Below, piece after piece: positions 20,872 through 59,898 of a stretch of DNA of 64,000 nt. The stretch is from Bacillota bacterium (GTDB lineage Bacteria; Bacillota; Sulfobacillia; JAIMAT01): contig JASBVM010000001.1 of NCBI GenBank assembly GCA_029961055.1, positions 6,888 through 70,887 on the forward strand. Reading direction: 5' to 3'. Positions within the stretch are counted from its first letter, which is position 1, and each line of letters begins with the position of its first letter. The position numbers and the translations under genes are program-made. Under the pieces are notes generated by a model that saw only the letters and a program-made list of their open reading frames with translations, was not told where the DNA came from and ran no database searches.

Positions 20872-21891
20872 TCAGCCGGAGACGACGGCCTCCCCCTCCA
20901 GGGCGAGGCGACGGAGCCGCTCCCGCTCCGCTCGCTCGAGCGCGGGGCCGCCCTCCAGGCTGAGGAGCAGCGCGCCCCGCACCGGCTCGCGCGCCGCCCT
21001 GCGGCAGTCGGCGGCGGGCAGCGAGCGGTGGAGCTCCAGGCGGAGCGCGTCCTCCAGCCAGGGGTTCTCGGGTCGGAAGAGTCCCCCGGCCAGCACCACG
21101 GGCAGCGCCGGGCCGCCCACGGGCGCGCTCAGGCCGGCCTGCCGCGCGGCCGCCCGGGCCGAGCCGGCCAGCTTCCTCCCCATCTCCAGCAGCAGCTCCT
21201 GGGCGACGGCGTCGCCCTCGCCGGCCAGGCGGACGACCAGGGGCGGGATGGCGGCCACCAGCCGGAAGACCTCGTCCGAGGGAGCCGCCTGACCTCCGCC
21301 GAGCCGTTCCGCCAGCTCGTCGTAGTCGCGGGCGCCGGTCAGCGCCAGCAGCTCCGGTTCGAGGCGCGTGCCGGCCCCCGAGCCTTCCTCGGAGCGGAAG
21401 GCCGCGTGGAGGGCGGCCCGCGCCAGGTCGATGCCGCCGCCGTAGTTCCCCTGTTCGTATCCCTTGCCGCGGAGGGTGAAGAGGCGGCCGGAGGCGTCCC
21501 GGGCCGCGGCGTTGGCGCCCGTCCCGGCCACCACCGCCACCGCCGGGCCGCCCTCGGGGGCGCCCCCCCAGAGTGCCGCCCAGGTGTCGTTGATCAGCCG
21601 GATCGACCAGCCTGGCAGCGCCTCGGCCAGGAGCGCCGAGACCCGGATGCGCTCCGCCTCCGTGTCCACGCCGGCCAGGGCGAAGGCGGCGGAGACGGGC
21701 GCCTCCGGGCCGCCGCCCGCCGCCGCGATCGCCCGCCCGAGCAGGTCCTTCAGAAGGGCCAGGGCGCGCTCCGGCCCCCAGACCTCGGGGCTCGAGCCCG
21801 CCCCCTCGGCGCGGCCCACCCGCCCGCTCCCGCTCTCCAGCGCCAGCACCCGCGTCCGCGACGCGCCGCCGTCGACGCCCACGTAGATCAC
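20872..21891 (-). CDS. BadF/BadG/BcrA/BcrD-type ATPase (N-acetylglucosamine-kinase-like)
   Basis: Only the last 339 aa of the 799-aa ORF-track entry are homologous. The protein begins VIYVGVDGGASRTRVLAL and contains AVVAGTGANAA. The GTG at 21891 overlaps the TGA of the upstream gene (GTGA). Confidence 0.75.
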   Translation of the reverse strand: MIYVGVDGGASRTRVLALESGSGRVGRAEGAGSSPEVWGPERALALLKDLLGRAIAAAGGGPEAPVSAAFALAGVDTEAERIRVSALLAEALPGWSIRLINDTWAALWGGAPEGGPAVAVVAGTGANAAARDASGRLFTLRGKGYEQGNYGGGIDLARAALHAAFRSEEGSGAGTRLEPELLALTGARDYDELAERLGGGQAAPSDEVFRLVAAIPPLVVRLAGEGDAVAQELLLEMGRKLAGSARAAARQAGLSAPVGGPALPVVLAGGLFRPENPWLEDALRLELHRSLPAADCRRAAREPVRGALLLSLEGGPALERAERERLRRLALEGEAVVSG

Positions 21892-23645
21892 GAGGCGACC
21901 CCCTTGGCCGGCGACGGCCGCCGGGGGGCCTCGGTGACGACGCGGAAGCCCATCCGGCGCGCCCGTTCGACGAAGTAGCGGACGTTCTCGACGCGGGCCG
22001 GACCGCCCAGCGTGCAGCGGTCGAAGGCGCCGTCCAGCGCCACCAGGATCGTCTCCGCCAGGCAGGCCGGGACCAGGCCGGGGCCGTAACCCAGGTCGAT
22101 CTGGAAGCGCGCCTCCCCGGGCAGGGCGACCACGCCGCCCGGTACCACCTCCACGCCCGGGAGCTCGGCCACGGAGGGGTCGACGTCGGCCGGGCGGCCC
22201 ACGTCGTAGAGGAGGGTTCCCGGGCGGACGTGCTCGGGGCGGACCACGGGCTCCACCTGGGAGGTGGCGGTGAAGACCACGTCCGCCTGCCGCAGGAGGG
22301 CGAGATCGGTCCCCGAGACCACCTCCAGGCCGGGAAAGTGGCGGCGGAGGGTGGCCGCCGACCGCTCCAGGCGGTCCAGGCTCGTCCCCAGCATGAGCAG
22401 CCGCCCCACCTGGCCGGCGATGCTGCGGGCGATGCCGAAGCCGACCACACCGTTGGCACCCACCACCGCAGCCGTCGCCTGCGAGAGGTCGAGCCCGCGG
22501 GCGCGGAGCCGCGCCATCACCCGCGGCACCGCCTCCGCCACGGCACCGGCGGTGTAGGCGCCGCCGTTGGTGACGGGGATGGGCGAGCCCTCCTGAACGG
22601 CCGAACCCTTTTCGCCCACCACCGACCAGTAGGCACCCAGCCCGAGCACCGTCGCCCCCAGCTCGCGGGCGAGCCGCGCCGCCTGCCGGGCCCGCCGCAC
22701 GGCCAGGTGCTCGTGGCGTTTGATCTGGGCGGGCAGCATGGGCACGCCCAGGAGGTAGATCCGCGCCCGCTTCCCCGTGGAGGTGAGGATGCCGGAGATC
22801 TCGTCCACCTCCATCGGCCGGATCCGGAGGGCCAACCGTTCCAGCCAGCGCTCCGGCAGGAGCCGCCGCCGGACCAGCGGCGCCAGCCAGCCGAAGCGCC
22901 GCGGCTGCCACCAGTCCTCCGGCGTCATCGGGTGGATCAGGAAGGCGCAGGCGACCTCCTCCGGGTCGGTCTCGGGGAGCGGCCTGCGCTCGCCCAGGCG
23001 GGGTTCGACACCGTCCAGGATGCGGCCGAGGTGCTCCTTCTGCCGCCAGAGGAGGAGCGAGGCGAGGAGCAGGGTGGGCCAGAGGAGGCCGGTGGCGCCC
23101 CCCGCGGCCGCGGCCACCGGCAGCGCCAGGGCGCCCAGGGCCACCGCCAACGAGGGCCAGCCCCAGCGTCCCCCCACCAGCCGGGGGAGCAGGAGCGCGG
23201 CCGCAGCCGCCAGCAGCGGCAGGAGCGCGGCCCCCGCCCCGAGCGAACCGGAGAGGGCCAGGGCCGCCCACCCGCCGGCGGCGGAGGCGGTGCCGCGGCT
23301 ACGCGGCGCCAGCCCGCCCGGCCAGAGGAAGGCGGGCGAGTACAGGTGCCCGGCGGTGACGCCCAGCACCGCCCAGTAGGCGAGATCCCGCCCGACCCGC
23401 GCGGCCAGCCAGACGGCCAGAGCCGCCTTGAGCAGGTCCGGAAGGCCGAAGAGCAGCGGCCAGGCGCTCCCCAGCCGCCGCCTCAGCGTACCCAGGCCCA
23501 GGTTGTAGGGACTCAGCCAGCGGACGTCCGCATGCTTCAGCGCCCACGCCAGGGCGTAGCCCACCGGCAGGGCGCCCCAGGCGAAGGAGGCGGCCAAGGC
23601 CGCGAGGAGCACCGCGGCGCGCAGGAGCAGATCGGACACACGCAC
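21888..23645 (-). CDS. Fusion protein: PlsY-like membrane domain + acyl-ACP-reductase (AAR)-like NAD(P) domain
   Basis: 585 aa. The first ~200 aa are hydrophobic and alignable to PlsY (…DLLKAALAVWLAARVG…, …TAGHLYSP…). The C-terminal ~340 aa align to cyanobacterial AAR (TNGGAYTAGAV, LSQATAAVVGANGVVG, VPACLAETILVALDG). A start at the GTG at 23639 is also possible. Confidence 0.7.
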   Translation of the reverse strand: MRVSDLLLRAAVLLAALAASFAWGALPVGYALAWALKHADVRWLSPYNLGLGTLRRRLGSAWPLLFGLPDLLKAALAVWLAARVGRDLAYWAVLGVTAGHLYSPAFLWPGGLAPRSRGTASAAGGWAALALSGSLGAGAALLPLLAAAAALLLPRLVGGRWGWPSLAVALGALALPVAAAAGGATGLLWPTLLLASLLLWRQKEHLGRILDGVEPRLGERRPLPETDPEEVACAFLIHPMTPEDWWQPRRFGWLAPLVRRRLLPERWLERLALRIRPMEVDEISGILTSTGKRARIYLLGVPMLPAQIKRHEHLAVRRARQAARLARELGATVLGLGAYWSVVGEKGSAVQEGSPIPVTNGGAYTAGAVAEAVPRVMARLRARGLDLSQATAAVVGANGVVGFGIARSIAGQVGRLLMLGTSLDRLERSAATLRRHFPGLEVVSGTDLALLRQADVVFTATSQVEPVVRPEHVRPGTLLYDVGRPADVDPSVAELPGVEVVPGGVVALPGEARFQIDLGYGPGLVPACLAETILVALDGAFDRCTLGGPARVENVRYFVERARRMGFRVVTEAPRRPSPAKGVAS

Positions 23646-23676: not shown

Positions 23677-24738
23677 CTACCTGGATTGCGACGGCTTGGG
23701 CTGGGCCAGGGGATCTTCGGAGAGAAGCCGGGCGAGAGGGAGAATCTGGTATCCGTGCGCCTCGATCCGCCGGATCAGCTCGGGAAGCGCGCGGGCCGTC
23801 TCGGCGGTGGGGTGCATCAGGACGAGCGCGCCGGGGTGCAGCTTCTGCTCGACCCGCTCCAGGATCGCCTCCGGGGAGGGATGCTGCCAGTCGACGGTGT
23901 CGACGGACCAGAGGATCACCTGGTGCCCGGCGGCCAGCGCCTGGTCCAGGACGGCCGGGGTGACCACTCCCCGGTGGGGGCTGAAGTAGAGCGGTCGCCT
24001 TCCCGTCACCGCCAGGATGACCCGGTCGGCCTGGACCACCTGGCGGGCCACCTCCGCCTCGCCCAGGTGCTCGTACTCCACCGTCTGCCAACCGTGGGAG
24101 TCGATCTCCTGCCCGGCGTCGGCGATGGCCTGCGCCAGGCGGGCGTTCTTCTCGGCCCAGCTGCCCACCAGGAAGAAGCTCGCCTGAACGCCCGCCCCCT
24201 GCAGCGCCTCCAGGATGGGCGGCAGGTACTCGTTCCCCCAGGCGACGTTGACCAGCAGGGAGACCGCGCGCCGCTGGGGGTTCCCCTGGTAGATGGGCGC
24301 CGGCGGCAGGTCGTCGAGGTGGACGCGGGGCGGCTGGAGCCGGTAGACGGGGCTGACGCGGGCTCCGTCGGGAGCGCGCAGCGCCGCCTCTACGGTGGCG
24401 GCCACGTCGAGGCGGAGGCCGGCCAGGCCGGGGACCCTTCCTCGCGTGACCGGGTCGATGCGGGCGTCCTCGGGCTGCGAGGAGAGCTGGCGGGACAGCT
24501 GGTCGAGCCAGCGGCGCAACTCCCGCTCGGTCCACCCGCTCACCTCGCGGTCGGCCAGCATGACGCCGGGGCGGACGGTGCGGAAGGGCTGGTCCAGCGG
24601 TCCCGTGGAGGAGCGGGAGGCGGGGCCGATCGGCGCGTCGTGGAGGAAGGCCCAGAGGAGGCCGAAGAGCAGCAGGGCGGCGGCCAGGTGCGCCGCCACG
24701 CGCAGGAGTCGCCGGAAGCTCCTCGCGTCGAAGATCAC
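23677..24738 (-). CDS. Polysaccharide deacetylase family sporulation protein (YlxY/PdaB-like), N-terminal membrane anchor
   Basis: Only the last ~353 aa of the 936-aa ORF-track entry are homologous. GTG at 24738 lies 8 nt after GGGAGG. A TM helix is followed by a NodB domain with LLVNVAWGNEYLPPILEAL…ASFFLVGSWAEK…DSHGW. Confidence 0.8.
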   Translation of the reverse strand: MIFDARSFRRLLRVAAHLAAALLLFGLLWAFLHDAPIGPASRSSTGPLDQPFRTVRPGVMLADREVSGWTERELRRWLDQLSRQLSSQPEDARIDPVTRGRVPGLAGLRLDVAATVEAALRAPDGARVSPVYRLQPPRVHLDDLPPAPIYQGNPQRRAVSLLVNVAWGNEYLPPILEALQGAGVQASFFLVGSWAEKNARLAQAIADAGQEIDSHGWQTVEYEHLGEAEVARQVVQADRVILAVTGRRPLYFSPHRGVVTPAVLDQALAAGHQVILWSVDTVDWQHPSPEAILERVEQKLHPGALVLMHPTAETARALPELIRRIEAHGYQILPLARLLSEDPLAQPKPSQSR

Positions 24739-26087
24739 CGTCGCCAACCTCCCGCCGGGGGGCCGGGTCGTGCGGTGGAGCCGCCGAGAGAGGGTATGGC
24801 GGGAGGGACGCCGGGAGACCTGGCCGCGGACGGGGAGTCGTTCCCGGTGGGAGGGACCGGTAAGATGGGGAGCTGCAAAGGAGGTCGGTGAGGAGTGGAG
24901 TCGGAGGCCACCCGGGTGGTGGTGACCGGCGTCGGCGCCGTCAGCGCGCTGGGAGTGGGTGCGGAGAGGCTCCGCGCCGGCCTGGCGGGCGCATGCGCCG
25001 CCGCCCGCATCGAGGAATGGGACGGCCTGGGGCGGCTGCCGGTGGCGAGGGTGGAGGGTTTCGAGCCGGAGCGCTTCCTCCCGCCCCGGGTCGTGCGGAA
25101 CAACGAGCGCTTCAGCCACCTGGCGGTCGCCGCCGCCGACCTGGCGCTGGAAGAGGCGGCTCTCGACCCGGCGGCGCTGGACCCCTGGCGCGTGGGCGTC
25201 GTCGGCGGAACGACGGTGGGCGGCCCGGGCGAGCTGATCGCCGGGCTGGAGCGGGTCCAGGTGAGCGGCCCGCGGCGGGTCGGCCCGCACACGATCCCGC
25301 GCATCATCCCCAACATCGCGGCCGGTCTGATCGCGGAGAAGCACGGGTTCCGGGGCGTCAACACCACCCTGACCACCGCCTCGGGGGCGGGTCTGGATGC
25401 GCTCGGCACCGCCTTCCTCTCGCTGTCGGAGGGCGAGGCGGACGTGATCCTGGCGGGTGCCAGCGAGTCCTCGCTGGAGCCGCTTCTTCTCGGGCCGCTC
25501 CTGCGCACCGGCGAGCTGAGCCGGAGCGGGGGACGGCCGTTCGACGCGCGCCGCGACGGGGTGACGGCCGGCGAGGGCGCCGCCTGGCTGGTCCTGGAGA
25601 GCCTGGCGCACGCGGAGGCCCGCGGCGCCCGCATCCTGGCCGAGGTGGTGGGCTACGGGCGGGCGCTGGCGACGGGCCCGCTGCTGGACGGCCCGACGCT
25701 GGCCGACGGCCTGGCGCGGGCGATCCGCGCCGCCCTCGACGAGGCCGGCGTGGGCCCGGAGGCGGTGGCGGCGGTGGTCGCTCACGCCGCCGGCTCGCCG
25801 CGGGTCGACCGGGCGGAGGCGGAGGCGTTGCACGCCGTCTTCGGCGGGGCGCTGCCGCCGGTGACGGCGCCCGCGGGGGCGCTGGGCTACACCATGGCCG
25901 CCAGCGGCGCCCTCCAGGCGGCGGTCGCCGTCCTCAGCCTGGCCGCCGGGGAGCTCCCCCCCACGGCCGGCTGGCAGGAAGCCGACCCGTCGCTGGAGCT
26001 CCTCCCGGTCCATGACGGCCCGCATCCGTTGGGCACGCGGCCGGGCCGGCCTCTCCTCCTCTGCACCGCCATCGGCCTGGGCGGCCC

Positions 26088-26863
<776 letters not shown>

Positions 26864-42270: not shown

Positions 42271-42603
42271 GAGGGTGGAGTGAGCGGGTGGTGCCGGCGA
42301 TCGGCCGGAACCGGGAGGGTCGGCTCGTGAGCTGCAGGCAAAAGCTACCTCGGCGGGTATGCCCGCATATCGCGCCCCTCCCCGGCGGCCGGGTGGAGCG
42401 GAAGTCATCCAGGGCTTGCAGGGTTTCCTGCAAGCCCTGAATATTTCGGCCACTTCAGCATGACGAAGTACCGGCCGGCGGCCCGCACGGCGACGGACCG
42501 GCTCCCCTTCCGCGGCCCATGGGGCGGCGGCCGGGAGCCGAGCGGCGCGCTGACCGCATGCGCCCCGGGGAGAGGGCGCGGCGGGGCGAAGGAGGTCGTA
42601 GCG

Positions 42604-43869
42604 TTGGCCGACCTGGTGGTGAAGGAGACGACCAACCCGTACAGGATCGTGCAGAGGCAGATCCGCCACGCCTGCGAGGCACTGGGACTGCCGGAGGTCG
42701 CCTACGAGATGCTGAAGGCACCCAAGCGCTTCCTCGAGGTGCAGATCCCCGTGCGCATGGACGACGGCACTGTCCGTCTCTTCACCGGCTACCGGTCCCA
42801 GCACAACGACGCCCTGGGGCCGGCCAAGGGCGGCATCCGCTTTCACCCCGGCGTCACCCCGGACGAGGTGAAGGCGCTCTCCATGTGGATGACGCTCAAG
42901 TGTTCCCTGCTCGGCCTGCCGCTGGGCGGGGGCAAGGGCGGGGTCGTCTGCGATCCCACAGAGCTGAGCGAGCGCGAGCTCGAGGCGCTGAGCCGGGGCT
43001 ACATCCGGGCCATCGCCCCCTTCATCGGACCGGAACAGGACGTGCCGGCCCCGGACGTCTTCACCAACGCCCGCGTCATGGCCTGGATGATGGACGAGTA
43101 CAGCCAGATCCAGGGCCACAACGTCTTCAGCGCCATCACCGGCAAGCCGGAGGTGCTGGGAGGCTCCTCCGGCCGGACAGGGGCCACGGGCCGCGGCGTG
43201 GCCATCACCATCCGCAAGGCGGCGGAGCGGCTGGGGCTGAAGCTCCGGGGCGCGACGGCGGCGGTTCAGGGGTTCGGCAATGTGGGCTCGCATGCAGCCC
43301 GCTACCTGGCGGAGCTCGGCGTGCGCATCGTCGGGATCTCGGACGTCCACGGTGGCGTCTACAACCCGGACGGCATCGACGTCCAGGCGGCCGTCGAGTG
43401 GACGCGGCGGGAGGGGAGCGTGGCCGGCCTCCCGGGGACGAAAGCCGTCGCCTCCGACGAGGTTCTCTTCCTCCCGGTAGACATCCTGGTGCCTGCCGCC
43501 CTGGAGGACCAGCTGACGGCTGAAAACGCGGGCCGGGTCCAGGCGCGCATCATCGGCGAGGGAGCCAACGGCCCGACCACGCCGGAGGCGGACGAGATCC
43601 TGTACCGGAACGGGGTGCTGGTCATCCCGGACGTGCTGGCCAACGCCGGCGGCGTGACGGTCAGCTACTTCGAGTGGGTGCAGAACCTGTACCACTTCAC
43701 CTGGACCGAGGCGGAGGTCAACCGACGGCTGGAGGAGATGATGGGGCGCGCCTTCGACACCGTCTATGCGGTGCATGAGGAGCACGGCGTCCCGATGCGC
43801 GAGGCGGCCGACAGGGTGGCCGTCAAGCGGATCTACGACGCGATGGAGGCCCGCGGCTGGCTCCACTGA
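42604..43869 (+). CDS. gdh: NAD(P)-specific glutamate dehydrogenase, copy 1
   Basis: TTG at 42604 lies 7 nt after GAAGGAGG. The protein begins LADLVVKETTNPYRIVQRQI and contains [21 protein letters not shown] and VQGFGNVG. It is 421 aa, the same length as copy 2. Confidence 0.9.
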   Translation: MADLVVKETTNPYRIVQRQIRHACEALGLPEVAYEMLKAPKRFLEVQIPVRMDDGTVRLFTGYRSQHNDALGPAKGGIRFHPGVTPDEVKALSMWMTLKCSLLGLPLGGGKGGVVCDPTELSERELEALSRGYIRAIAPFIGPEQDVPAPDVFTNARVMAWMMDEYSQIQGHNVFSAITGKPEVLGGSSGRTGATGRGVAITIRKAAERLGLKLRGATAAVQGFGNVGSHAARYLAELGVRIVGISDVHGGVYNPDGIDVQAAVEWTRREGSVAGLPGTKAVASDEVLFLPVDILVPAALEDQLTAENAGRVQARIIGEGANGPTTPEADEILYRNGVLVIPDVLANAGGVTVSYFEWVQNLYHFTWTEAEVNRRLEEMMGRAFDTVYAVHEEHGVPMREAADRVAVKRIYDAMEARGWLH

Positions 43870-43894
43870 TCACGCAGGAAGGAACGAACGAACG

Positions 43895-43922
43895 GGCGGC
43901 GAGGCCGGGCGGCCTCGCCGCC
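43895..43922 (+). terminator. Hairpin terminator after gdh copy 1
   Basis: Perfect 12-bp stem GGCGGCGAGGCC-gggc-GGCCTCGCCGCC followed by TCCTCTT. Confidence 0.5.
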
Positions 43923-43980
43923 TCCTCTTGCCGCGGGAGTCGGCCGGCTTTCTCGCGGAAAAGGGATCTGCCGGGCCGGA

Positions 43981-44009
43981 TTGACAATTGCCGGAAACCG
44001 CCCTACAAG
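43981..44009 (+). promoter_or_regulatory. Candidate promoter of gdh copy 2 (TTGACA-17-TACAAG)
   Basis: It has the same architecture and spacer sequence as 42242-42270. Confidence 0.45.
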
Positions 44010-44225
44010 AGGACGGGGCCAGGGTTTGCAGGGTTGCTTCTCGCCCTGCAGGCCTCTGTGCTGCGACCGCTTCAGCAGGCCAAGCACGTCGGCGGGCGGC
44101 CGTTCCAAGCGTCCCGCCGGGATGCCCCCGGCCCCGCGAGGGGACGACTGGCAGCGAGCGGGACGGGCGAAGCTGTGAGCGCAGGCAACCTGTGGAGGGT
44201 TGCAGCGGGGCGAGGGGGGAATCGG

Positions 44226-45491
44226 ATGGCCGACCTGCTGGCGAAGGAAACGACCAACCCGTTCGAGATCGTGCAGGGGCAGATCCGGCATGCCTGCGAG
44301 GCACTCGGGGTACCGCCGGCCGCCTTCGAGGTGTTGAGGGCGCCCAGGCGCTTCCTCGAGGTCCGGATCCCCGTGCGCATGGACGACGGCACCGTCCGCC
44401 TCTTTACGGGCTACCGAGCGCAGCACAACGACGCCCTGGGACCCACCAAGGGGGGGATTCGCTTTCACCCTGCTGTCACCCCGGACGAGGTGAAGGCGCT
44501 CTCCATGTGGATGACCCTCAAGTGCTCGCTGCTCGGCCTGCCGCTCGGCGGCGGCAAGGGCGGGGTCGTCTGCAACCCCAAGGAGATGAGCGAGCGCGAG
44601 CTGGAGGAGTTGAGCCGCGGCTACATCCGGGCCATCGCTCCCATCGTCGGACCGGAGAAGGATGTGCCGGCGCCCGACGTCTACACCAACCCCCGGATCA
44701 TGGCCTGGATGATGGACGAGTACAGCAAAATCCAGGGCCACAACGTCTTCGGCCTGATCACCGGCAAACCGGTGGCCGTCGGCGGTTCGCTGGGTCGCAG
44801 CGAGGCGACGGGTCGGGGCTGCGTGGTGACGGTGAGCCGCGCCGCCGAGCGGGTAGGCCTCGACCTGACCGGGGCGACCGTGGCCGTCCAGGGCTTCGGC
44901 AACGCCGGCAGCGTCGCTGCCCGGTTGATCGGTCAGCGCGGCGCCCGCGTCGTGGCGGTGAGCGACTCCAAGGGCGGTATCTTCAAGGCGGACGGCCTGG
45001 ATGTCGAAGCGGTCGTCCGGCACAAGGCCGAGACAGGGACGGTCCTCGGCTTCCCCGGCGCGCGGGAGATCACCAACGACGAGCTCCTCACGCTCGACGT
45101 CGACATCCTCATTCCGGCCGCGCTGGAGAACCAGCTGACCGCGGAGAACGCGCCGCGCATCCGGGCGCGGATCATCGCCGAAGCGGCCAACGGTCCCACC
45201 ACGCCGGAGGCCGACGAGATCCTGTACCGCAACGGCGTCCTGGTGGTCCCGGACGTGCTGGCCAATGCGGGTGGCGTCACCGTCAGCTACTTCGAGTGGG
45301 TCCAGAACCGGTATAACTTCTACTGGACGGAAGAAGAGGTCAACCAGCGGTTGGAAGCGATGATGACCAGGGCCTTCGACGCCGTCTACGTCATGCATGA
45401 GGAGCGCGGCGTCTCCATGCGCGAGGCCGCCGACATGGTGGCGGTCCGGCGCGTCGTCGACGCCATGGAGGCCCGGGGATGGCTACACTGA
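44226..45491 (+). CDS. gdh: NAD(P)-specific glutamate dehydrogenase, copy 2
   Basis: ATG at 44226. The protein begins [20 protein letters not shown] and is 421 aa. By eye it is about three-quarters identical to copy 1. Confidence 0.9.
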
Positions 45492-45618
45492 ACGCGAGCG
45501 CCTGAGGGGCCCGGAAGGCGGCGGGGCCGAAAGAGCCTCGCCGCCTCGTCGTCAGCGGCGCCTTCGGTGCCGCCGCCGGCAGGCGGGAGGCCCGCCGGGC
45601 GCGAGGGAGGGACGCCGG

Positions 45619-47289
45619 ATGCGCTGGGACGAGGAAGCCCGCACGCGGCACGAGGCTTGGCTGGAGCGGCTGGAGGCTGCGCCCCGGCGGCGCCAGCGGT
45701 TCGCCACGCCGTCGGGCCTCGAGGTGAAGCCGCTCTATACGCCCGAGGACCTCCCCGACGCTCCCTACGCGGAGCGCCTAGGCTTTCCGGGGGAGTACCC
45801 CTTCACGCGCGGGATCTACCCCAGCATGTACCGCGGGCGGACGTGGACCATGCGGCAGTACGCCGGCTATGCCACCGCCGAGGAGTCCAACCGCCGCTAC
45901 CGCTACCTGCTGGAGCAGGGCCAGACCGGCTTGAGCGTCGCCTTCGACCTGCCGACGCAGATCGGGTACGACTCGGACCATCCCCTCGCCTTCGGCGAGG
46001 TGGGGCGGGTCGGCGTGGCCATCGACACGGTGGAAGACATGGAGCGGCTCTTCGAGGGGATCCCGCTCGACCGGGTCAGCACCTCCATGACCATCAACGC
46101 CACCGCCGCCACGCTCCTGGCCTTCTACATCGTGGTCGCGGAACGGCGCGGGATCCCGCCGGAGAAGCTGTCGGGCACCGTCCAGAACGACATCCTCAAG
46201 GAGTACGCCGCCCGGGGCACGTACATCTACCCGCCCGGCCCCTCCATGCGCCTGGTCACCGACCTGATGGAGTTCTGCGCGGAGCGGGTGCCGAACTGGA
46301 ATACCATCAGCATCTCCGGCTACCACATCCGCGAGGCGGGCGCGACGGCGGTGGAGGAGCTGGCCTTCACCCTGGCCGACGGGATCGCCTACGTCCGGGC
46401 GGCGGTGGATCGGGGCCTGGAGGTCGACCGCTTCGCGCCCAGGCTCTCCTTCTTCTTCAACGCCCACATGCACTTCTTCGAGGAGATCGCCAAGTTCCGG
46501 GCGGCCCGGCGGATGTGGGCGAAGATCATGCGCGAGCGCTTCGGCGCCCGCGACCCGCGCTCCTGGATGCTCCGCTTCCACACCCAGACGGCGGGCTCCA
46601 CCCTGACCGCCCAGCAGCCGGAGAACAACGTGGTCCGCGTCACGCTCCAGGCGCTGGCGGCCGTCCTGGGAGGCACCCAGTCGCTGCACACCAACGCCCG
46701 CGACGAGGCGCTGGCGCTGCCCACGGAGGAGAGCGCGCGCCTGGCGCTGCGCACCCAGCAGATCCTGGCGCTGGAGAGCGGCGTGGCCGACACCGCCGAC
46801 CCGCTGGGCGGCTCCTACTTCGTGGAGGCGCTGACCGACCGCCTGGAGCAGGAAGCGTGGCAGCTGATCGAGGAGATCGACCGCATGGGGGGCGCGGTCC
46901 GCGCGGTGGAGGAAGGCTGGATGCAGGAGCGGATCCGCCGCAGCGCCTACCGCTACCAGCGGGCGGTGGAGTCGGGCGAGCAGCCGGTGGTGGGTGTCAA
47001 CGTCCTCCGCGACGAGGAAGGGGCGGGCGACCCGGCCTCCGGCCTCCTCCAGATCGACCCCGCGGTGGAGCGGGACCAGGTGGAGCGCCTCCGCGCCTAC
47101 CGCGCCCGGAGGGACGCCGTCGCGGTGGCCCGCGCGCGGGAGAGGCTGGAGCAGTCGGCGCGCGACCCGCACGCCAACCTGCTGCCGCCCATCCTCGAGG
47201 CGGCCCGTGCCGGCGTCACGCTGGGCGAGATCGCCGACACGCTGCGCGCCGTCTTCGGCGAGTACGGCGCCGCCCGGCAGGCGGGCTAG
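45619..47289 (+). CDS. Methylmalonyl-CoA mutase, large (catalytic) subunit
   Basis: ATG at 45619 lies 8 nt after GAGGGAGGG. It contains [34 protein letters not shown] and [13 protein letters not shown]. Confidence 0.9.
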
Positions 47290-47331
47290 GCCGCGCGGGG
47301 CGAGGCGCGAGCCGGGAGGGAGGCGAAGAGG

Positions 47332-47769
47332 ATGAGGTTGGAGCGGCCCATCCGGGTTCTGGTGGCCAAGCCGGGGCTGGACGGGCACGACCGGGGCGCC
47401 AAGGTGATCGCCCAGGCGCTCCGCGACGCCGGCATGGAGGTGATCTACACCGGGCTTCGCCAGACGCCGGCCATGATCGCGCAGGCGGCGCTGGAGGAGG
47501 ACGTGGACGTGGTCGGACTCTCCAGCCTCTCCGGCGCCCACCGCACGCTCTTTCCCGAGGTGCTGCGGGAGATGCGGGAGCGGGGGCTGGGGGACGTACC
47601 GGTGATCGCCGGCGGCATCATCCCGCCGGAGGATGCGGAGCGCCTGGAGGCCGCCGGCATCGCCCGCATCTTTCCGCCGGGCACGCCGCTGGAGAGGATC
47701 GTGGCGGCCGTGGAGGAGCTGGCGCGGGGGCGCCGGACGGGCGAGCTGAGCCGCAGGGGGGAGGGATGA
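47332..47769 (+). CDS. Methylmalonyl-CoA mutase, B12-binding small subunit
   Basis: 145 aa. It contains [18 protein letters not shown] (the DxHxxG cobalamin motif) and GLSSLSGAH. Confidence 0.9.
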
Positions 47770-48185
47770 GCGTGGAGCGGCCGGCGTTGGACCACATCGG
47801 GGTGGCGGTGGACGACCTGGAAGCCGCCCTCCCCCGCTGGGGCGCCCTGGGGCTGGCGGCCGTCCACGTGGAGGAGGTGGCCGGGGACCGGGTCCGGGTG
47901 GCGCTTCTCCCCTTCGCCGGGGGAGGGCGGATCGAGCTGCTGGAGCCGACCGATCCCGCAGGCCCGGTGGGTCGCTTCCTCTCGCGGAGGGGGGCGGGGC
48001 TCCACCACGTCGCCCTGCGGGTGGCGGACATCCGGCGGGCGCTGCGGGAGGCGGTGGAGGCGGGGCTGGAGGCCATCGACGCGGAGCCGCGGCGCGGCGC
48101 CGAGGGCCAGTGGGTCGCCTTCCTCAAGCCGGCGGGGCTGGGGGGCGTCCTGGTCGAACTCTGCCAGAAGGAGGAGGAGGCTTGA
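47766..48185 (+). CDS. Methylmalonyl-CoA epimerase (VOC/glyoxalase fold)
   Basis: ATG at 47766 overlaps the upstream stop (ATGA). It contains [21 protein letters not shown] and GLHHVALRV. Confidence 0.85.
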
Positions 48186-49729
48186 GCGCGGGAGACGTGT
48201 CGGAGCTGCTCCGCCGCCGCCAGCAGGCGCTGGCGGGTGGCGGCCCGGAGCGCGTCGCCAAGCAGCATGCCCAGGGGAAGCTGACCGCCCGCGAGCGGCT
48301 GGAGATCCTCTTCGACCCGGGCAGTTTCCAGGAGATCGGGCAGCTGGCCGCCCACCGGGGCGACGTGCCCGGCCTGGAGGGGCGCGAGGCGCCCGGCGAC
48401 GGGGTGGTGACCGGGTGGGGCCGGGTGGAGGGACGGACGGTCTTCGCCTTCGCCCAGGACTTCACCCAGATCGGCGGCACCCTGGGCGAGGTCCACGCCC
48501 AGAAGATCCAGAAGCTCCAGGAGACGGCACTCCGGGCCGGTGCGCCCGTCGTCGGCCTGCAGGACTCCGGTGGCGCCCGCATCCAGGAGGGCGTGGCGGC
48601 GCTGGACGGGTACGCCGGCATCTTCCGCAGGAACACGCTGGCCTCCGGGGTGATCCCCCAGATCTCGGTCATCCTGGGCCCCTGCGCCGGCGGGGCGGTC
48701 TACAGCCCGGCGCTGACCGACCTGGTGGTGATGGTCGAGGGGACCAGCCAGATGTTCATCACCGGCCCTGACGTGATCCGGGCCGTCACCGGCGAGGAGA
48801 TCACCCACGAGGAGCTGGGCGGCGCGAGGGCGCACTTCGTGCGGAGCGGCGTCGCGCACCTCGTGGCGCCGGACGACCGGAGCGCGCTGGAGCTGGTGCG
48901 GCGGCTCCTGGGATACCTTCCTTCCAACAACGTCGAGGATCCGCCGGCGGGCGAAGCCCGCGAGCCGGACGCGCAGGCCTCCGAGGAGCTGGAGCACGCC
49001 ATCCCCGCGGACCCCAACCGTCCCTATGACGTGCGCCGGGTGATCCAGGGGCTGGTGGACGCGGGCAGCTGGCTGGAGATCCAGGCCGGCTTCGCGCAGA
49101 ACGCGGTGGTCGGACTGGCGCGCATGGCCGGCCGGGTCGTCGGGGTGGTGGCCAACCAGCCGCGGACGCTGGCGGGCACGCTGGACATCGACGCCTCCGA
49201 CAAGATCGCCCGCTTCGTCCGCCTCTGCGACGCCTTCAACATCCCCCTGGTGACGCTGGTGGACACGCCGGGCTACCTGCCCGGGCGGGCGCAGGAGCAC
49301 GGCGGCATCATCCGCCACGGGGCCAAGGTGCTTTACGCCTACGCCGAGGCGACGGTACCCAAGGTGAGCCTCATCCTGCGCAAGGCGTACGGCGGCGCCT
49401 ACATCGCCATGTGCTGCCGCGGGCTGGGCGCCGACCTCGCCTGGGCCTGGCCGACCGCCGAGATCGCGGTGATGGGGCCGGAGGGCGCCGCCAACATCAT
49501 CTACCGGCGGGAGATCGAGGCGGCCGAGGATCCCGCCGCCGAGCGCGCGCGCCGGGTGGCGGAGTACCGCGAGCGGTTGGCCAACCCCTTCGTCGCGGCG
49601 GAGCGCGGCTTCATCGACGACGTGCTCCTGCCCGGGGAGACGCGGGCGCGGCTGATCGCGGCCCTGGAGGGGCTGGCCGCCAAGCGGGAGGAGCGCCCCC
49701 CCAGGAAGCACGGCAATCTCCCGCTGTGA
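48182..49729 (+). CDS. Acyl-CoA carboxylase carboxyltransferase subunit (propionyl-CoA carboxylase beta / methylmalonyl-CoA carboxyltransferase 12S type)
   Basis: TTG at 48182 overlaps the epimerase stop. It contains GKLTARERLEILFDPGSFQEIG, GGARIQEG, and …PGYLPGRAQEHGGIIRHGAKVLYAY…. Confidence 0.9.
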   Translation: MSAGDVSELLRRRQQALAGGGPERVAKQHAQGKLTARERLEILFDPGSFQEIGQLAAHRGDVPGLEGREAPGDGVVTGWGRVEGRTVFAFAQDFTQIGGTLGEVHAQKIQKLQETALRAGAPVVGLQDSGGARIQEGVAALDGYAGIFRRNTLASGVIPQISVILGPCAGGAVYSPALTDLVVMVEGTSQMFITGPDVIRAVTGEEITHEELGGARAHFVRSGVAHLVAPDDRSALELVRRLLGYLPSNNVEDPPAGEAREPDAQASEELEHAIPADPNRPYDVRRVIQGLVDAGSWLEIQAGFAQNAVVGLARMAGRVVGVVANQPRTLAGTLDIDASDKIARFVRLCDAFNIPLVTLVDTPGYLPGRAQEHGGIIRHGAKVLYAYAEATVPKVSLILRKAYGGAYIAMCCRGLGADLAWAWPTAEIAVMGPEGAANIIYRREIEAAEDPAAERARRVAEYRERLANPFVAAERGFIDDVLLPGETRARLIAALEGLAAKREERPPRKHGNLPL

Positions 49730-52333: not shown

Positions 52334-52339
52334 GAGGCT

Positions 52340-53272
<933 letters not shown>

Positions 53273-53274
53273 CG

Positions 53275-53787
53275 ATGCAGGGTAGCCGAGCGGTTGCGCG
53301 GGGCCGGCCGCAGGAGGGGGCGGGGCGGGCCGCGCGCTCGCCGCGCCGCCGTCCCGCCGCCCGGGAGGGTCGCCGCTCCGAGCTGCGCTTCCTCGGGGGG
53401 CTGGCGCTCCTCTGGCTGCTGGCGGTGGGCGTGGTCGTCCTCCACGTACAGGTGAGCAGCGCCGCCTACCGGCTCGATCAGGAGGCCAGCCGCCTGGCCG
53501 CGCTCCGCCAGCAGGAGGCGCTCCTGGCGGCGCAGGCCGCCAGCCTCGACTCGCCGCAGCGCGTGCTGAGCGAGGCGCGTACCAAGCTGGGACTGGTGAC
53601 GCCGCAGGCTTCCCCCATCCCGCTCCGGCCCGGCCGGCCCGCCGGGGCGCCGCCGGCGCCGGCCGGCAGGCAGGCGGTGGTGCGGTTGCCACCCCCGCCG
53701 CAGCCTTCCCCCGAACGGGCGGCGGTCCAGTCCTGGTGGGGCCACGCCGTCCGCTTCGCCCAGGCGCTCTGGGCGCTCGGCCGGTGA
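53275..53787 (+). CDS. ftsL: Cell division protein FtsL (bitopic, coiled coil)
   Basis: The call rests on its position between rsmH and the class B PBP. It has a basic N-terminus, a single TM helix (LGGLALLWLLAVGVVVL) and a coiled coil (YRLDQEASRLAALRQQEALL). Confidence 0.65.
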   Translation: MQGSRAVARGRPQEGAGRAARSPRRRPAAREGRRSELRFLGGLALLWLLAVGVVVLHVQVSSAAYRLDQEASRLAALRQQEALLAAQAASLDSPQRVLSEARTKLGLVTPQASPIPLRPGRPAGAPPAPAGRQAVVRLPPPPQPSPERAAVQSWWGHAVRFAQALWALGR

Positions 53788-53851
53788 CGGTCTGCGCGGA
53801 CCGGTCGCCAGCTCCGCGTCGCACGGTGCGAGACGGTGAGAGAGGAAGCGG

Positions 53852-55999
53852 GTGAGGTGGAGGACGATGAGGGCCGAGGGTAGGCGCCGCCTGGCCGTGG
53901 TGCTGATCGGGACGCTCGCGGCGCTGCTCCTCCTGGCCGTCCGTGTCGCCTACCTGCAGCTCTGGCGCGGCTCGGAGCTGGCCAGACAGGCGCAGGAGAC
54001 GCGCACCCACGACCTTCCCGTCGCCCCCAAACGCGGCGAGATCGTCGACACCCGCGGCCGTCCCCTGGCGGTGGACGTCACCGCCCAGACGGTGGTGGCC
54101 AACCCGGCCGAGATCACCGACCCGGCGGGGGAGGCGGCCAAGCTGGCACCCGTGCTGGACGTGCCCGAGCCGGTCATCCGCCAGATCCTCTCCACCCGCA
54201 GCTCGTACCAGTACGTGAAGAGGAAGGTGGACCCGAAGACCGCCCAGGCCGTCCGCGACCTCCACCTGCCCGGGATCTACCTGACCCAGGAGAGCTCCCG
54301 CTTCTACCCCGACGGCATCCTGGCCGCCAACGTCCTGGGTTTCACCGGCATCGACAACCAGGGGCTGGACGGCGTGGAGGCGGTCTACAACAAGGAGCTG
54401 CAGGGCAAGCCGGGAGCGATCCGCCTCCAGTTCGACGCCCGCTCGCAGCCGCTTCCCCAGGCGGGCGCCGTCTACAAGAAGCCGGAGGACGGCATGACCC
54501 TGGAGCTCACCATCGACCGGACCGTCCAGACCATCGTGGAGCAGGAGATCGAGCGCGTCTTCCAGCGCGTCCATCCGCTGGGAGCGTGGGCCCTGGTCAT
54601 GGACCCCAACACCGGCGCCATCCTGGGCATGGCCCAGCGCCCCAGCCTCGACCCGAACCGCTGGCAGCAGCTCTCCGGCCAGGAGCTGCAGAGGCTCTCG
54701 CGCGACCTCCTCATCGACAACACCTACCCGCCGGGGTCGGTCTTCAAGCCGGTCACGGCCGCCATCGCCATCGAGACCGGCAAGGTGACCCCCGAGACGC
54801 CCTTCTACGACCCCGGCAGCGCCCGCATCCTGGGCCAGACCATCTCCAACTGGAACGGCGCCGGCCGGGGGGCGACCAATTTCGGCGAGGGCTTCCAGGA
54901 CTCGGCCAACGTCGTCTTCGCCAAGACGGGGCTGATGATCGGCAAGAGCACCTTCTACGAGTACCTGAGGAAGTTCGGCTTCATGGGAACCACCGGCGTC
55001 GACCTCCCCGGCGAGGCGCTGAGCATCATGCCGCCGGAGTCGCGAGCCACCGACCTCGACCTGGCGCTGATGGCCTTCGGCCAGACCCTGACGGTGACGC
55101 CCATCGCCATGGCCCGGGCGATCGCCGCCATCGCCAACGGCGGCTACCTGGTGACGCCACACGTGGCCAAGGCGCTGCTCTCGCCCGACGGGCGGGTGGT
55201 CCGAACCTTCGAGTGGAAGCCCCAGGGCAGGGTGATCTCAGCCCAGACCGCGGCCACGGTCCGCTCCCTCATGGAGCGGGTGGTGCAGAACGGGACCGGC
55301 GTGGAGGGGCAGATCCCCGGCTACCGGGTCGGCGGCAAGACGGGCACCTCGCAGAAGGTGATCGGCGGCCGGGTGGTGCCTGGAAAGAATATCGCATCGT
55401 TCATCGGACTCGTCCCCATTGATCGCCCCCGGCTTTTGATCTACGTAATGGTGGATGAGCCGCAGGGGGTCCCGTACGGCGGCCAGGTGGCGGCACCGGT
55501 CTTCCACGATATCGCCGTGCAGGTGCTCAACGTCCTGCACATTCCCCCGGATGCCAAGGTGGGGAACGGCACCGCCCCCGGCGGACAGGAGCAGGACACG
55601 CTGGTACCCAACCTCGTCAACCTGGACCGCAAGACGGCCGAGGGGCTGGCACAGGAGAGCGGGGTCCAGCTCCGCTTCCTGGGCGGCGGGCCCCTGGTGC
55701 TTCGCCAGCTGCCGGCCAAGGGCGCGGTGGTGGTGCGCGGCAGCATCGTCTACGCGTACACCGACCCGGCCCCGGGAAGCCCGGCCGCCCAGGGCAAGGT
55801 GACCGTCCCCGACCTCCAAGGGCGGCTGCTGGGCGACGCCGCCGACCTTCTGGCCTCGGTGGGCCTCCGGATGGAGGCCGAGGGCGACGGGGTGGTCACC
55901 GGCCAGACACCCGCGGCGGGGAGCCTGGTGGACCCGGGGACCGTCGTCCGGCTGCGGTTGACGGCAGCGCCCCAGGAAGGTGTGACCGGACCTCCGTGA
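53852..55999 (+). CDS. Class B penicillin-binding protein (FtsI/PBP2B/SpoVD type) with two PASTA domains
   Basis: 715 aa. It has a PBP dimerisation domain, SVFKP, KTGTSQ, and two C-terminal PASTA repeats (VPNLVNLDRKTAEGL…, VPDLQGRLLGDAADLL…). Confidence 0.9.
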   Translation: MRWRTMRAEGRRRLAVVLIGTLAALLLLAVRVAYLQLWRGSELARQAQETRTHDLPVAPKRGEIVDTRGRPLAVDVTAQTVVANPAEITDPAGEAAKLAPVLDVPEPVIRQILSTRSSYQYVKRKVDPKTAQAVRDLHLPGIYLTQESSRFYPDGILAANVLGFTGIDNQGLDGVEAVYNKELQGKPGAIRLQFDARSQPLPQAGAVYKKPEDGMTLELTIDRTVQTIVEQEIERVFQRVHPLGAWALVMDPNTGAILGMAQRPSLDPNRWQQLSGQELQRLSRDLLIDNTYPPGSVFKPVTAAIAIETGKVTPETPFYDPGSARILGQTISNWNGAGRGATNFGEGFQDSANVVFAKTGLMIGKSTFYEYLRKFGFMGTTGVDLPGEALSIMPPESRATDLDLALMAFGQTLTVTPIAMARAIAAIANGGYLVTPHVAKALLSPDGRVVRTFEWKPQGRVISAQTAATVRSLMERVVQNGTGVEGQIPGYRVGGKTGTSQKVIGGRVVPGKNIASFIGLVPIDRPRLLIYVMVDEPQGVPYGGQVAAPVFHDIAVQVLNVLHIPPDAKVGNGTAPGGQEQDTLVPNLVNLDRKTAEGLAQESGVQLRFLGGGPLVLRQLPAKGAVVVRGSIVYAYTDPAPGSPAAQGKVTVPDLQGRLLGDAADLLASVGLRMEAEGDGVVTGQTPAAGSLVDPGTVVRLRLTAAPQEGVTGPP

Positions 56000-56032
56000 T
56001 CCGGGCGCATCCCAAGATCTGGAGGGAACGTC

Positions 56033-58911: not shown

Positions 58912-59896
58912 GACATGGCAGCGCGGCTGGTGGCTCCCCCTGGCGGCGGCCGCCGCCTTCGGCCTGCTCGGAACGCTTCTCGTGACGCCACTCCTGCTCC
59001 CTCTTCTGCGCCGCTGGCACGTCGGCCAGGCGGTCCGCCCGGAGGGGCCGGCCACGCACCGGGTGAAGGCGGGGACGCCCACCATGGGCGGCCTCGCCTT
59101 TGTCCCGGTCACCGCGGCGGCCACCCTTCTCTGGGCACCGCCCAGCGCCCCCACGGCGGTGGCGCTGGCGCTCTTCCTGGGCCACGGAGCCCTGGGCTGG
59201 CTGGATGACCACCTGAAGGTGGTCCGCCACCGCTCGCTCGGTCTGGCCGCGCGGTACAAGCTCCTGGGCCAGACGATCCTGGCGCTTCTCCTGGTCTGGG
59301 CCGTCGGCCACGGGGAGCTGGGCAGCTGGGTCCAGATCCCCTTCACCAGCCAGCGCATCGATCTCGGCTGGGCCTACCCGGTCCTGGTCTGGCTGGTGGT
59401 GCTGGCGGCGAGCAACGCCGTCAACCTGACCGACGGCCTGGACGGTCTCCTCGGCGCGACCACGCTGCCGGTGGCGCTGGCATATGCATGGATCGCCATC
59501 GCCGCCGGCCAGGCCGGCCTGGCCGTCGGCATGAGCGCGCTCTTCGGGGCGCTCCTGGGCTTCCTCGTCTTCAACCGTCACCCGGCGCAGATCTTCATGG
59601 GCGACACCGGCTCCCTGGCGGTGGGCGGACTGCTGGCGGCGGTGGCCATCCTGACCAAGACCGAGCTGTATCTGGTCCTGATCGGTCTGGTCTATGTGCT
59701 GGAGGCGCTTTCGGTGATCGTCCAGGTGGCCAGTTTCCAGCTGACGGGTCGGCGAGTCCTGCGCATGAGCCCGCTCCACCACCATTTCGAGCTGGGCGGC
59801 ATGAGCGAGGAAGGGGTGGTGGGCCGCTTCACCCTGCTCTCCCTGCTGGCGAGTGCGACGGGACTCCTCTCTCTCTGGATCTCGGGGGGCTGGTAG
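58904..59896 (+). CDS. mraY: Phospho-N-acetylmuramoyl-pentapeptide transferase
   Basis: 330 aa. It contains GTPTMGG, NAVNLTDGLDGL, IFMGDTGSLAVGG and PLHHHFE. Confidence 0.95.
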   Translation: MLETWQRGWWLPLAAAAAFGLLGTLLVTPLLLPLLRRWHVGQAVRPEGPATHRVKAGTPTMGGLAFVPVTAAATLLWAPPSAPTAVALALFLGHGALGWLDDHLKVVRHRSLGLAARYKLLGQTILALLLVWAVGHGELGSWVQIPFTSQRIDLGWAYPVLVWLVVLAASNAVNLTDGLDGLLGATTLPVALAYAWIAIAAGQAGLAVGMSALFGALLGFLVFNRHPAQIFMGDTGSLAVGGLLAAVAILTKTELYLVLIGLVYVLEALSVIVQVASFQLTGRRVLRMSPLHHHFELGGMSEEGVVGRFTLLSLLASATGLLSLWISGGW

Positions 59897-59898
59897 CG

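Follow-up and report, generated by a model that had tools for sequence, protein, structure and literature searches.

The locus studied here raises the question of whether a single open reading frame (ORF) that seems to join a membrane acyltransferase of the PlsY type to a fatty-acyl reductase is a real gene and, if so, what a protein of this make-up could do. The ORF lies in a stretch of 64,000 nucleotides from a Bacillota bacterium (contig JASBVM010000001.1; the whole stretch is called the window), and an earlier note, made from the sequence alone, had read it as a PlsY-like domain fused to a domain resembling cyanobacterial acyl-ACP reductase (AAR; ACP, acyl carrier protein). As judged from sequence and predicted structure, the fusion is probably a two-domain inner-membrane enzyme, a specialised PlsY paralogue and not the cell's glycerol-3-phosphate (G3P) acyltransferase. 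Both domain families are known, but the searchable literature has no description of their fusion, of the remodelled PlsY site or of what the protein does; in agreement with the earlier note, which knew of no such enzyme, we found no published account in the literature on the fusion, on COG5322, on AAR-like proteins of Deinococcus or Thermus or on alkylamine biosynthesis.

Identity of the two domains and reality of the fusion

The C-terminal half proved to be AAR-like from end to end, as had been proposed. Its residues ~276-569 align along their whole length with Synechococcus AAR (6jzq, E 3.5e-12) and with the N-terminal domain of PigE (4ppm, E 8.6e-16), and the PigE model NF053554 matched residues 281-569 on model positions 48-335 with 92.8 bits (E 1.7e-26), which does not reach its equivalog cut-off of 850 bits; the AAR model TIGR04058 gave 41.7 bits, below its equivalog cut-off of 449.7. 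An AlphaFold model made with 39 members of the fusion family had a mean pLDDT of 91.3 and a pTM of 0.89, and a Foldseek search of the PDB with this model returned AAR chains as the top matches (6jzu and 6jzz, TM score 0.74-0.76 over ~362 columns), followed by the carmabin TAD reductase. The acyl-accepting Cys had been placed correctly in the earlier note, since the Cys of PACLAE falls exactly on Cys294 of the fACFAE segment of AAR. The proposed GxxGxxG site was also confirmed: VVGANGVVG aligns with VVGATGDIG of AAR, and this loop and Cys528 are invariant in 39 diverse members. About 60 positions of the reductase are invariant among these members, including P526-A527-C528-A530-E531 and G396/G399/G404, and most invariant positions of the fusion family fall in this half. 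Of the triad R189/R193/R314 that holds the 2'-phosphate of NADPH in AAR, only R193 is retained (R425), R189 being replaced by T421 and R314 by G548. The best Pfam label of the C-terminal half is PF01488 (Shikimate_DH), which covers only the Rossmann part (386-500), the remainder being AAR-like with the catalytic Cys; an ordinary shikimate/quinate dehydrogenase was therefore rejected, and the Pfam search found no match to the shikimate-binding domain Shikimate_dh_N, nor any Aminotran_3 domain, in the fusion protein.

The reductase belongs to a large family, as this domain alone forms 2472 clusters at 50% identity. Its members occur as stand-alone proteins of ~350 amino acids, as PigE-like fusions to class-III aminotransferases, as fusions to an SRPBCC lipid-binding domain and as PlsY fusions, and in a plasmid collection only PigE-like reductase-aminotransferases of Thioclava were matched. 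In AAR the acyl group is held as a thioester on Cys294, NADPH and the thioester substrate sharing one hydrophilic cleft above the Cys, while the alkyl chain lies in a tunnel; the N-terminal segment forms the far mouth of the tunnel, where the aldehyde exits to the partner enzyme (PMC7089970). The same domain is found in PigE, TamH and carmabin TAD. In PigE the N-terminal domain reduces a thioester to an aldehyde (PMC8341465), and the characterised relative TamH also converts an acyl thioester to an aldehyde (PMC9594044). The COG5322 papers that we found concern transaminase-linked pathways too.

The N-terminal half belongs to the PlsY family, as the earlier note had also claimed. The Pfam model PF02660 (G3P_acyltransf) matched residues 20-209 with 52.3 bits against a cut-off of 24.1, Aquifex PlsY (5xj5) aligned to this domain with E 1e-6, and Foldseek found its fold with seven transmembrane helices to match 5xj5 at a TM score of 0.78. 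The domain is 29% identical to the canonical PlsY of Thermus scotoductus, and the equivalog model TIGR00023 gave 32.5 bits, below its cut-off of 137.2. Each of the motifs quoted in the note, namely DLLKAALAVWLA, TAGHLYSP, SPYNLGLGT and VVGANGVVG, was found in its place.

Having established the identity of the domains, we asked how widely the fusion occurs. At least 435 homologues with E<=1e-3 had the same length and both Pfam domains, most of them from metagenome-assembled genomes (MAGs) of Armatimonadota, and the closest relatives of the query, that is, the protein of the window, were from uncultured "Bacillota bacterium" MAGs. With a Thermus member as query we obtained 750 proteins at E<=1e-50, including named species of Thermus, Meiothermus and Oceanithermus, and a scan of GTDB with one genome per species gave 258 loci, the best 80 of which include Armatimonadota, a few Bacillota and, from the Deinococcota, the genera Deinococcus, Thermus, Meiothermus and Oceanithermus, some of them represented by complete genomes of strains in culture. 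Thus, the view of the fusion as a Firmicutes oddity was not sustained, the family being large, spread over three phyla and centred on Armatimonadota and Deinococcota. The linker and the first reductase strand are conserved as EPRLGE..PLP....EV.CAFLIHP, and comparison with the nearest orthologue (82% identical) indicated purifying selection on both halves, with a dN/dS of 0.29 for the N-terminal and 0.14 for the C-terminal domain. Since the same single ORF recurs in hundreds of independent assemblies, a false fusion is excluded; a frameshift or assembly artefact was rejected on the same ORF and conserved linker being present in more than 700 proteins, among them those of complete Deinococcus and Thermus genomes.

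Remodelling of the PlsY site and the canonical PlsY of Thermus

The earlier note had called the Gly-rich PlsY motif of the query degenerate, and the degeneracy is real, with S35P and T41G in SPYNLGLGT (residues as numbered in Aquifex PlsY). Altogether, the PlsY half of the query carries the substitutions S35P, T41G, G102R, K104R, H177Q and N180H. In the first motif, S35 has become P46 and T41 has become G52, while N37, G39 and R45 are retained; in loop 3, which reads RSRGTA and has a 5-residue insertion ahead of it, G102 has become R115, an Arg that is invariant in the fusion family, and K104 has become R117; and in the third motif H177 is replaced by Q202 and N180 by H205. Hence, of the clamp S35/R45/K104/N180 for the phosphate of G3P and the binders S142/H177 of its 2-hydroxyl, only R45 and S142 are left, which establishes the loss of the G3P residues. 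On the acyl-phosphate side, H92 is retained and invariant, loop 3 is altered, and T41, the binder of the carbonyl, is replaced by Gly. Family-wide, G36 has changed to His or Tyr and G102 to the invariant Arg, and H92, N37, G39, S142 and the DxxKG motif are retained throughout.

The PlsY half is more variable than the reductase half across the family, and it falls into several types. Type A, to which about half of the copies in Armatimonadota belong, reads GSHNIGATN..R, R.KA and H..N and has all the side chains with which Aquifex PlsY handles G3P and acyl-phosphate. The other Armatimonadota copies (type B) read SPHNLGLGT..A and H..H, with S35P, T41G, R45A and N180H, and the Deinococcota copies (type C) read S[AV]YNLG[VL]E[NS]..R, R.RG and [FY]KEN, with S35A/V, T41E, K104R and H177F/Y. 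The query and its two closest relatives, all from Bacillota MAGs, read SPYNLGLGT..RR, RSRG and WRQKEH, with S35P, T41G, K104R, H177Q and N180H. Since each type retains a conserved signature of its own, the polar pocket looks rebuilt and not decayed. A second, distant fusion clade (P0163, P0173, P0213) has a canonical PlsY half in which every side chain for G3P and acyl-phosphate is present. We also noted that Deinococcus alpinitundrae has two fusion copies (L056 and L082), the L082 copy being divergent, with the motifs VCSAHNLGISN and LKEQ; it adjoins genes for an alpha/beta hydrolase, an SDR, an MFS transporter and a ketoacyl synthase that is 40% identical to the atypical ketoacyl synthase of the window.

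Single mutants of Aquifex PlsY retain 1.0% (H177Q), 0.95% (N180H), 4.8% (S35A), 4.75% (T41A), 1.1% (R45A), 25% (K104R), 0.32% (H177F) and 0.03% (H177Y) of the activity (PMC5700162). Because substitutions such as H177Q and N180H nearly abolish the activity of Aquifex PlsY, the query and the fusions of types B and C should be very poor G3P acyltransferases.

A canonical plsY elsewhere in a genome that has the fusion was the finding that had been set beforehand as speaking against the glycerol-phosphate acyltransferase part of the proposal, and such a gene was found in Thermus on the same scaffold as the fusion. As query we used T. thermophilus PlsY, translated from the synthetic gene printed in the supplement of PMC5700162, which is canonical, has ~197 amino acids and contains GSGNIGATN, GGKGVAT and THRENLKRL. 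A PlsY of ~200 amino acids was found in T. scotoductus, T. composti, T. sediminis, T. oshimai, T. igniterrae and Meiothermus ruber, all of which also have the fusion, and in Marinithermus, Calidithermus, M. cerbereus and one Deinococcus. In T. scotoductus DSM 8553, scaffold KB905730.1 carries plsY at ~48.9 kb and the fusion at ~32.8-34.4 kb (L068), and the T. composti genes are on BMPJ01000001 (plsY) and BMPJ01000005 (fusion, L047). Since canonical PlsY and the fusion are present in one Thermus genome, the fusion is a specialised paralogue there, and the role of a housekeeping PlsY was rejected for the fusion in Thermus and Meiothermus. In the 64-kb window itself, a motif search and Pfam annotation of most of it revealed no plsX, plsY, plsC or ACP gene and no other lipid-pathway partner; a distant AMP-binding enzyme and the atypical ketoacyl synthase are present.

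Proposed mechanism and its alternatives

We favour, at what we judge to be an even chance from the domain architecture and conserved residues, the view that the fusion is a membrane-docked, aldehyde-forming acyl-ACP or acyl-CoA reductase, whose PlsY module would either relay the aldehyde or catalyse a reaction of a new polar substrate. In the proposed mechanism Cys528 of the cytoplasmic domain would take up an activated fatty acyl group as a thioester, with acyl-ACP or acyl-CoA as the likeliest donor, and hydride transfer from NAD(P)H would free a long-chain fatty aldehyde. The 11-residue linker would tie the reductase to the last helix of the PlsY fold, and since the N-terminal segment that forms the tunnel mouth in AAR-type enzymes is here tied to a membrane domain, the aldehyde would probably be handed into the PlsY groove or the membrane. 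The PlsY module appears to retain its holders for a lipid head group and a phosphate, namely H92, the backbone of loop 3, N37, G39 and S142, while its rebuilt polar pocket should no longer take G3P; it may be a docking and hand-off station, or it may be a catalyst that uses another polar partner. Such a pathway would provide a membrane lipid with a hydrocarbon chain that is reduced and not ester-linked, for which the alkylamine chain of the phosphoglycolipids is the candidate in Deinococcota. Here, we infer which substrate is used, which way the product is handed on, what the PlsY module does and which lipid results, as well as how Cys528, the mouth of the tunnel and the PlsY groove lie relative to one another.

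Several points weigh against this mechanism. The PlsY module of type A and of the P0163/P0173/P0213 clade may, to judge from its residues, still acylate G3P, and what the mutations do in Aquifex PlsY need not hold for a protein with just 24-29% identity. Furthermore, no aminotransferase or other functional partner is conserved beside the fusion in any clade among the 83 loci surveyed, and in the searchable literature there is no report of alkylamine lipids from Armatimonadota or Bacillota.

An alternative, which we consider unlikely but worth weighing, is that the enzyme is an acyl-phosphate reductase, whose PlsY module binds acyl-phosphate supplied by PlsX or by a fatty-acid kinase and hands it on to Cys528, upon which phosphate leaves and NAD(P)H reduces the thioester to the aldehyde. 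Aspartate-semialdehyde dehydrogenase, ArgC, ProA and GAPDH work in this way, from an acyl-phosphate through a thioester to an aldehyde, so that the proposal has a precedent in established enzymology. It would also suit the retention of the acyl-phosphate side (the invariant H92 = H100, the K/R-G of loop 3, N37 and G39) next to the loss of the G3P side, and in the PlsY-DegV fusion a FakB-like acyl-phosphate carrier occupies the same position and was interpreted by Li et al. as channelling. However, the carbonyl binder T41 is Gly in the query and Glu in Deinococcota, and in AAR the entrance for the thioester is the hydrophilic cleft that also takes NADPH, and the tunnel, which points away, accommodates just the alkyl tail (PMC7089970), so a dianionic head group would have to cross a hydrophobic tunnel from the membrane side to reach Cys528.

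The favoured aldehyde-forming mechanism can be extended to a lipid whose synthesis has been a question since the 1980s. T. thermophilus HB8 and D. radiodurans have the phosphoglycolipid N-(((GlcNAc)acyl2Gro)P-2)GroA)alkylamine, and the alkyl group in Thermus is iso-heptadecanyl, of the iso type like the fatty acids of the cell (PMC3398001); in 2022 the enzymes making the alkylamine, the third hydrophobic chain, were described as not identified (PMC9636437). Since the reductase family often pairs with aminotransferases, the fusion, which is present in every Deinococcota genus among the listed loci, becomes a testable candidate for the first step, all the more so as both Deinococcus and Thermus are transformable. 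In a more speculative extension, the aldehyde from the reductase would be transaminated to an alkylamine, and the PlsY module would run an 'inverted' reaction, with the lipid amine in the acyl groove and a polar acyl-phosphate, such as 3-phosphoglyceroyl phosphate (1,3-bisphosphoglycerate), spanning the phosphate hole and the former clamp for G3P; this would yield an N-(phospho)glyceroyl alkylamine, a lipid isosteric with lysophosphatidic acid. The change of T41 to Glu in Deinococcota and the family-wide changes of G36 to His or Tyr and of G102 to Arg might suit an amine and an extra phosphate. That the fusion family is the missing enzyme of the Deinococcus-Thermus alkylamine branch, the inverted reaction included, is in our estimate a long shot; if true, related three-chain lipids would be expected in Armatimonadota and in the high-GC spore-forming Bacillota lineage of the window. 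As a separate observation, the Thermus plsY overlaps by 8 nt a gene for a PIG-L family (PF02585) GlcNAc de-N-acetylase in T. scotoductus and T. composti (Table 1), which is a plausible candidate for the conversion of PGL, the GlcNAc form, to PGLN, the GlcN form described in 2022.

The note had proposed that the fusion could make reduced chains or attach them to glycerol phosphate, as a bacterial route to ether lipids. In such a route the PlsY module would join the aldehyde or alcohol to G3P, for example as a hemiacetal that gives a 1-O-alk-1-enyl or alkyl glycerol phosphate. The active sites are rigidly coupled in the predicted model, with its pTM of 0.89 and conserved linker, and the intact G3P pocket next to an intact reductase in type A and in the second fusion clade makes some G3P-linked chemistry plausible there. 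For the query, on the other hand, the proposal was weakened, as the G3P clamp, the 2-hydroxyl binders, T41 and K104 have undergone replacement: the clamp is dismantled by S35P, H177Q and N180H in the query, and by S35P/A, R45A, H177F/Y and N180H in types B and C. In addition, PlsY chemistry needs a phosphate leaving group and an aldehyde has none, the lipid reports on Deinococcota consulted here give alkylamine and 1,2-diol lipids with ether lipids not described, and nearby we found no partner resembling alkyl-dihydroxyacetone-phosphate synthase or a desaturase. We therefore consider this route improbable.

Still less probable, in our judgement, is that the fusion is a self-feeding G3P acyltransferase, in which the PlsY module makes lysophosphatidic acid and the C-terminal domain supplies the acyl-phosphate, either by phosphorolysis of acyl-ACP at Cys528, bypassing PlsX, or by a GAPDH-like phosphorylating oxidation of an aldehyde. 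PGAP and JGI do label the fusion family glycerol-3-phosphate acyltransferase, its neighbours include housekeeping genes (infC-rpmI-rplT in Thermaceae, pheST in the window), PlsY-DegV offers a precedent for a C-terminal donor domain, and fusions with a canonical PlsY half exist. Nevertheless, a canonical PlsY co-exists with the fusion in Thermus and Meiothermus, residues whose single mutation leaves <=1% activity are substituted in the query, and the nucleotide-binding loop, for which a transacylase has no need, is strictly constrained. Finally, that the ORF is an assembly or frameshift artefact, or its C-terminal half an ordinary shikimate/quinate dehydrogenase as the Pfam label might suggest, can be dismissed, since the 340-residue domain resembles AAR, PigE-N and carmabin TAD by sequence as well as by fold and the ORF is the same in hundreds of assemblies.

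Genomic setting and comparison with known systems

The features of the fusion gene and of the loci around it are collected in Table 1. Two GTG codons 6 nt apart could each start the ORF in frame, the bases just upstream being GAAGGAGAGGGTGCGTGTG; from the spacing to a GGAG ribosome-binding site, which lies 9 nt ahead of the second GTG, and from the database gene call for an identical protein (P0001), which has 583 amino acids and uses that codon, GTG 23639 is the probable start.

Table 1. Coordinates of the fusion gene, its parts and the genes discussed (positions refer to the window unless a locus number is given)
Feature	Position	Strand	Details
Whole fusion ORF	21888..23645	-	585 aa from GTG 23645; 583 aa from GTG 23639; stop TGA at 21888-21890
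PlsY-fold 7-transmembrane domain, residues 1-218	22992..23645	-	PF02660, 5xj5 alignment, Foldseek, AlphaFold helices
PlsY motif 1 remnant	23478..23513	-	SPYNLGLGTLRR; canonical GSGNxGATNxxR
GH before loop 3	23337-23351	-	Retained (H92 = H100)
Loop 3 ('phosphate hole')	23283..23309	-	APRSRGTAS; canonical FxGGKGVAT
PlsY motif 3 remnant	23022..23048	-	WRQKEHLGR; canonical YRHRENIxR
Linker, residues 219-229	22959..22991	-	11 conserved residues, last PlsY helix to first reductase strand
Acyl-thioester reductase domain, residues 230-570	21936..22958	-	Complete, AAR/PigE-N type (COG5322)
Dinucleotide-binding loop	22434..22466	-	VVGANGVVGFG (GxxGxxG); G396, G399, G404 invariant
Catalytic segment PACLAE	22053..22070	-	Invariant Cys528, aligned to acyl-accepting Cys294 of AAR
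BadF/BcrAD-type ATPase gene	20872..21891	-	Downstream of fusion; weak NagK-like match
Polysaccharide deacetylase gene	23677..24780	-	Upstream of fusion; membrane-anchored, YlxY/PdaB-like
FabF-like ketoacyl synthase gene	24895-26121	+	Divergent from deacetylase-fusion-kinase genes
Amino-acid dehydrogenase and mutase genes	42547-49729		Two tandem Glu/Leu/Phe/Val-type dehydrogenase genes, then methylmalonyl-CoA-mutase-like, B12-binding and carboxyltransferase genes
dcw cell-wall cluster	52334-62176		mraW to murG
Thermaceae fusion locus	L084 6368-10327; also L030, L047, L068		infC-rpmI-rplT, small PF06695 membrane-protein gene, fusion, PNP_UDP_1 nucleosidase-like gene
Thermus plsY and PIG-L genes	L088 4001-5279; L090 4001-5282		8-nt overlap
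ORFs flanking type-A fusions	L086 6650-7827, 9929-11896; L087 6821-7905, 10985-12967		Armatimonadota MAGs

In the window, the TGA of the fusion and the GTG with which the BadF-type ATPase gene begins share bases at 21888-21891 (cctcGTGAtctac), which bears out the translational coupling of the two genes, and the gene upstream encodes a sporulation-type deacetylase, both as the earlier note had described. The deacetylase gene ends 31-37 nt ahead of the fusion start, depending on the GTG, and the two genes probably form one operon. The order deacetylase-fusion-kinase-like gene is common only to the closest MAG, Bu54 (GCA_029960955.1). The window has ~77% G+C and carries the sporulation genes YtxC, YunB and RsgI as well as housekeeping genes, two tandem amino-acid dehydrogenase genes followed by methylmalonyl-CoA-mutase-like, B12-binding and carboxyltransferase genes, and the dcw cluster. 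The divergent FabF-like ketoacyl synthase gene is conserved beside the fusion in Bu54; compared with T. thermophilus FabF (1j3n), its product has Ser for Cys (TTASGAG), Tyr for the second His (GALGY) and Ala for Lys, so that the catalytic residues are absent, and it scored 264.7 bits against a fabF cut-off of 493.75.

A survey of the neighbours by all-against-all clustering of the ORFs in the 83 loci showed that class-III aminotransferases lie near the fusion only sporadically, and no gene like that of aldehyde-deformylating oxygenase (ADO), the partner with which AAR makes alkanes, was found in the window or in the flanks of the related loci. In Thermaceae the fusion stands in the setting given in Table 1, the PF06695 gene overlapping its start (in T. 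thermophilus it may be TTHA0555), and in Deinococcus it is followed by ispH, while Armatimonadota loci have unrelated housekeeping or unannotated neighbours, with DUF72 and CN hydrolase in one group. The fusion of the window lies ~8 kb from infC-rpmI-rplT-pheST, and the proximity to infC-rpmI-rplT both here and in Thermaceae may be a remnant of shared gene order. Judged by its surroundings, the fusion gene behaves like a constitutively needed stand-alone function. The type-A fusions of two Armatimonadota MAGs (L086, L087) were seen to share the same unannotated flanks, two ORFs of ~180-200 amino acids upstream and one of ~655 amino acids downstream, and the three flanking ORFs of L086 had no Pfam match.

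In comparison with known systems, the fusion shares with PlsY of Aquifex (5XJ5) and Thermus the fold with seven transmembrane helices (TM score 0.78), 24-29% identity, a cytoplasmic C-terminus and the elements DxxKG, H92, N37, G39, R45, S142 and the juxtamembrane W.xKE..R..G.E, but differs from it in the six substitutions of the query and in having a C-terminal enzyme of 360 residues. The PlsY fold, which had been associated with one reaction only, seems to have been reused with a rebuilt polar pocket and a hard-wired redox enzyme, and the annotation as glycerol-3-phosphate acyltransferase in hundreds of genomes, including those of Thermus and Deinococcus, is probably wrong for most members. 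With Synechococcus elongatus AAR (6JZQ/6JZU) the fusion has in common the full-length, three-domain fold of the reductase, the catalytic Cys, the GxxGxxG loop, R193 and, presumably, the formation of an aldehyde via a thioester, whereas it is only 22-23% identical, is membrane-tethered and has R189 and R314 replaced. The closest sequence profiles to its reductase are those of the PigE N-terminal domain (4PPM), the TamH TR domain and carmabin TAD (9E4S), whose aldehyde is then aminated; unlike in these, the partner in the fusion is a PlsY-fold membrane domain and not a pyridoxal-phosphate-dependent aminotransferase, and the substrate is presumably a long-chain fatty acyl group. ElbD of myxobacteria, to which the earlier note had compared the fusion, is a multidomain ether-lipid enzyme that combines a reductase with AGPAT; its AGPAT (PlsC-type) and reductase families differ from the domains of the fusion, no homology was seen, though none was looked for, and the likeness is conceptual only. 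Li et al. 2017 sought PlsY fusions and reported only PlsY-DegV, in Bellilinea and Thermanaerothrix, which resembles the fusion in carrying a lipid-handling domain at the cytoplasmic C-terminus of PlsY and was interpreted as substrate channelling. In PlsY-DegV, however, an acyl-phosphate carrier feeds a canonical PlsY, while the fusion instead has a redox enzyme and a remodelled PlsY site, and may thus represent a new way to couple soluble acyl-thioester chemistry to the membrane.

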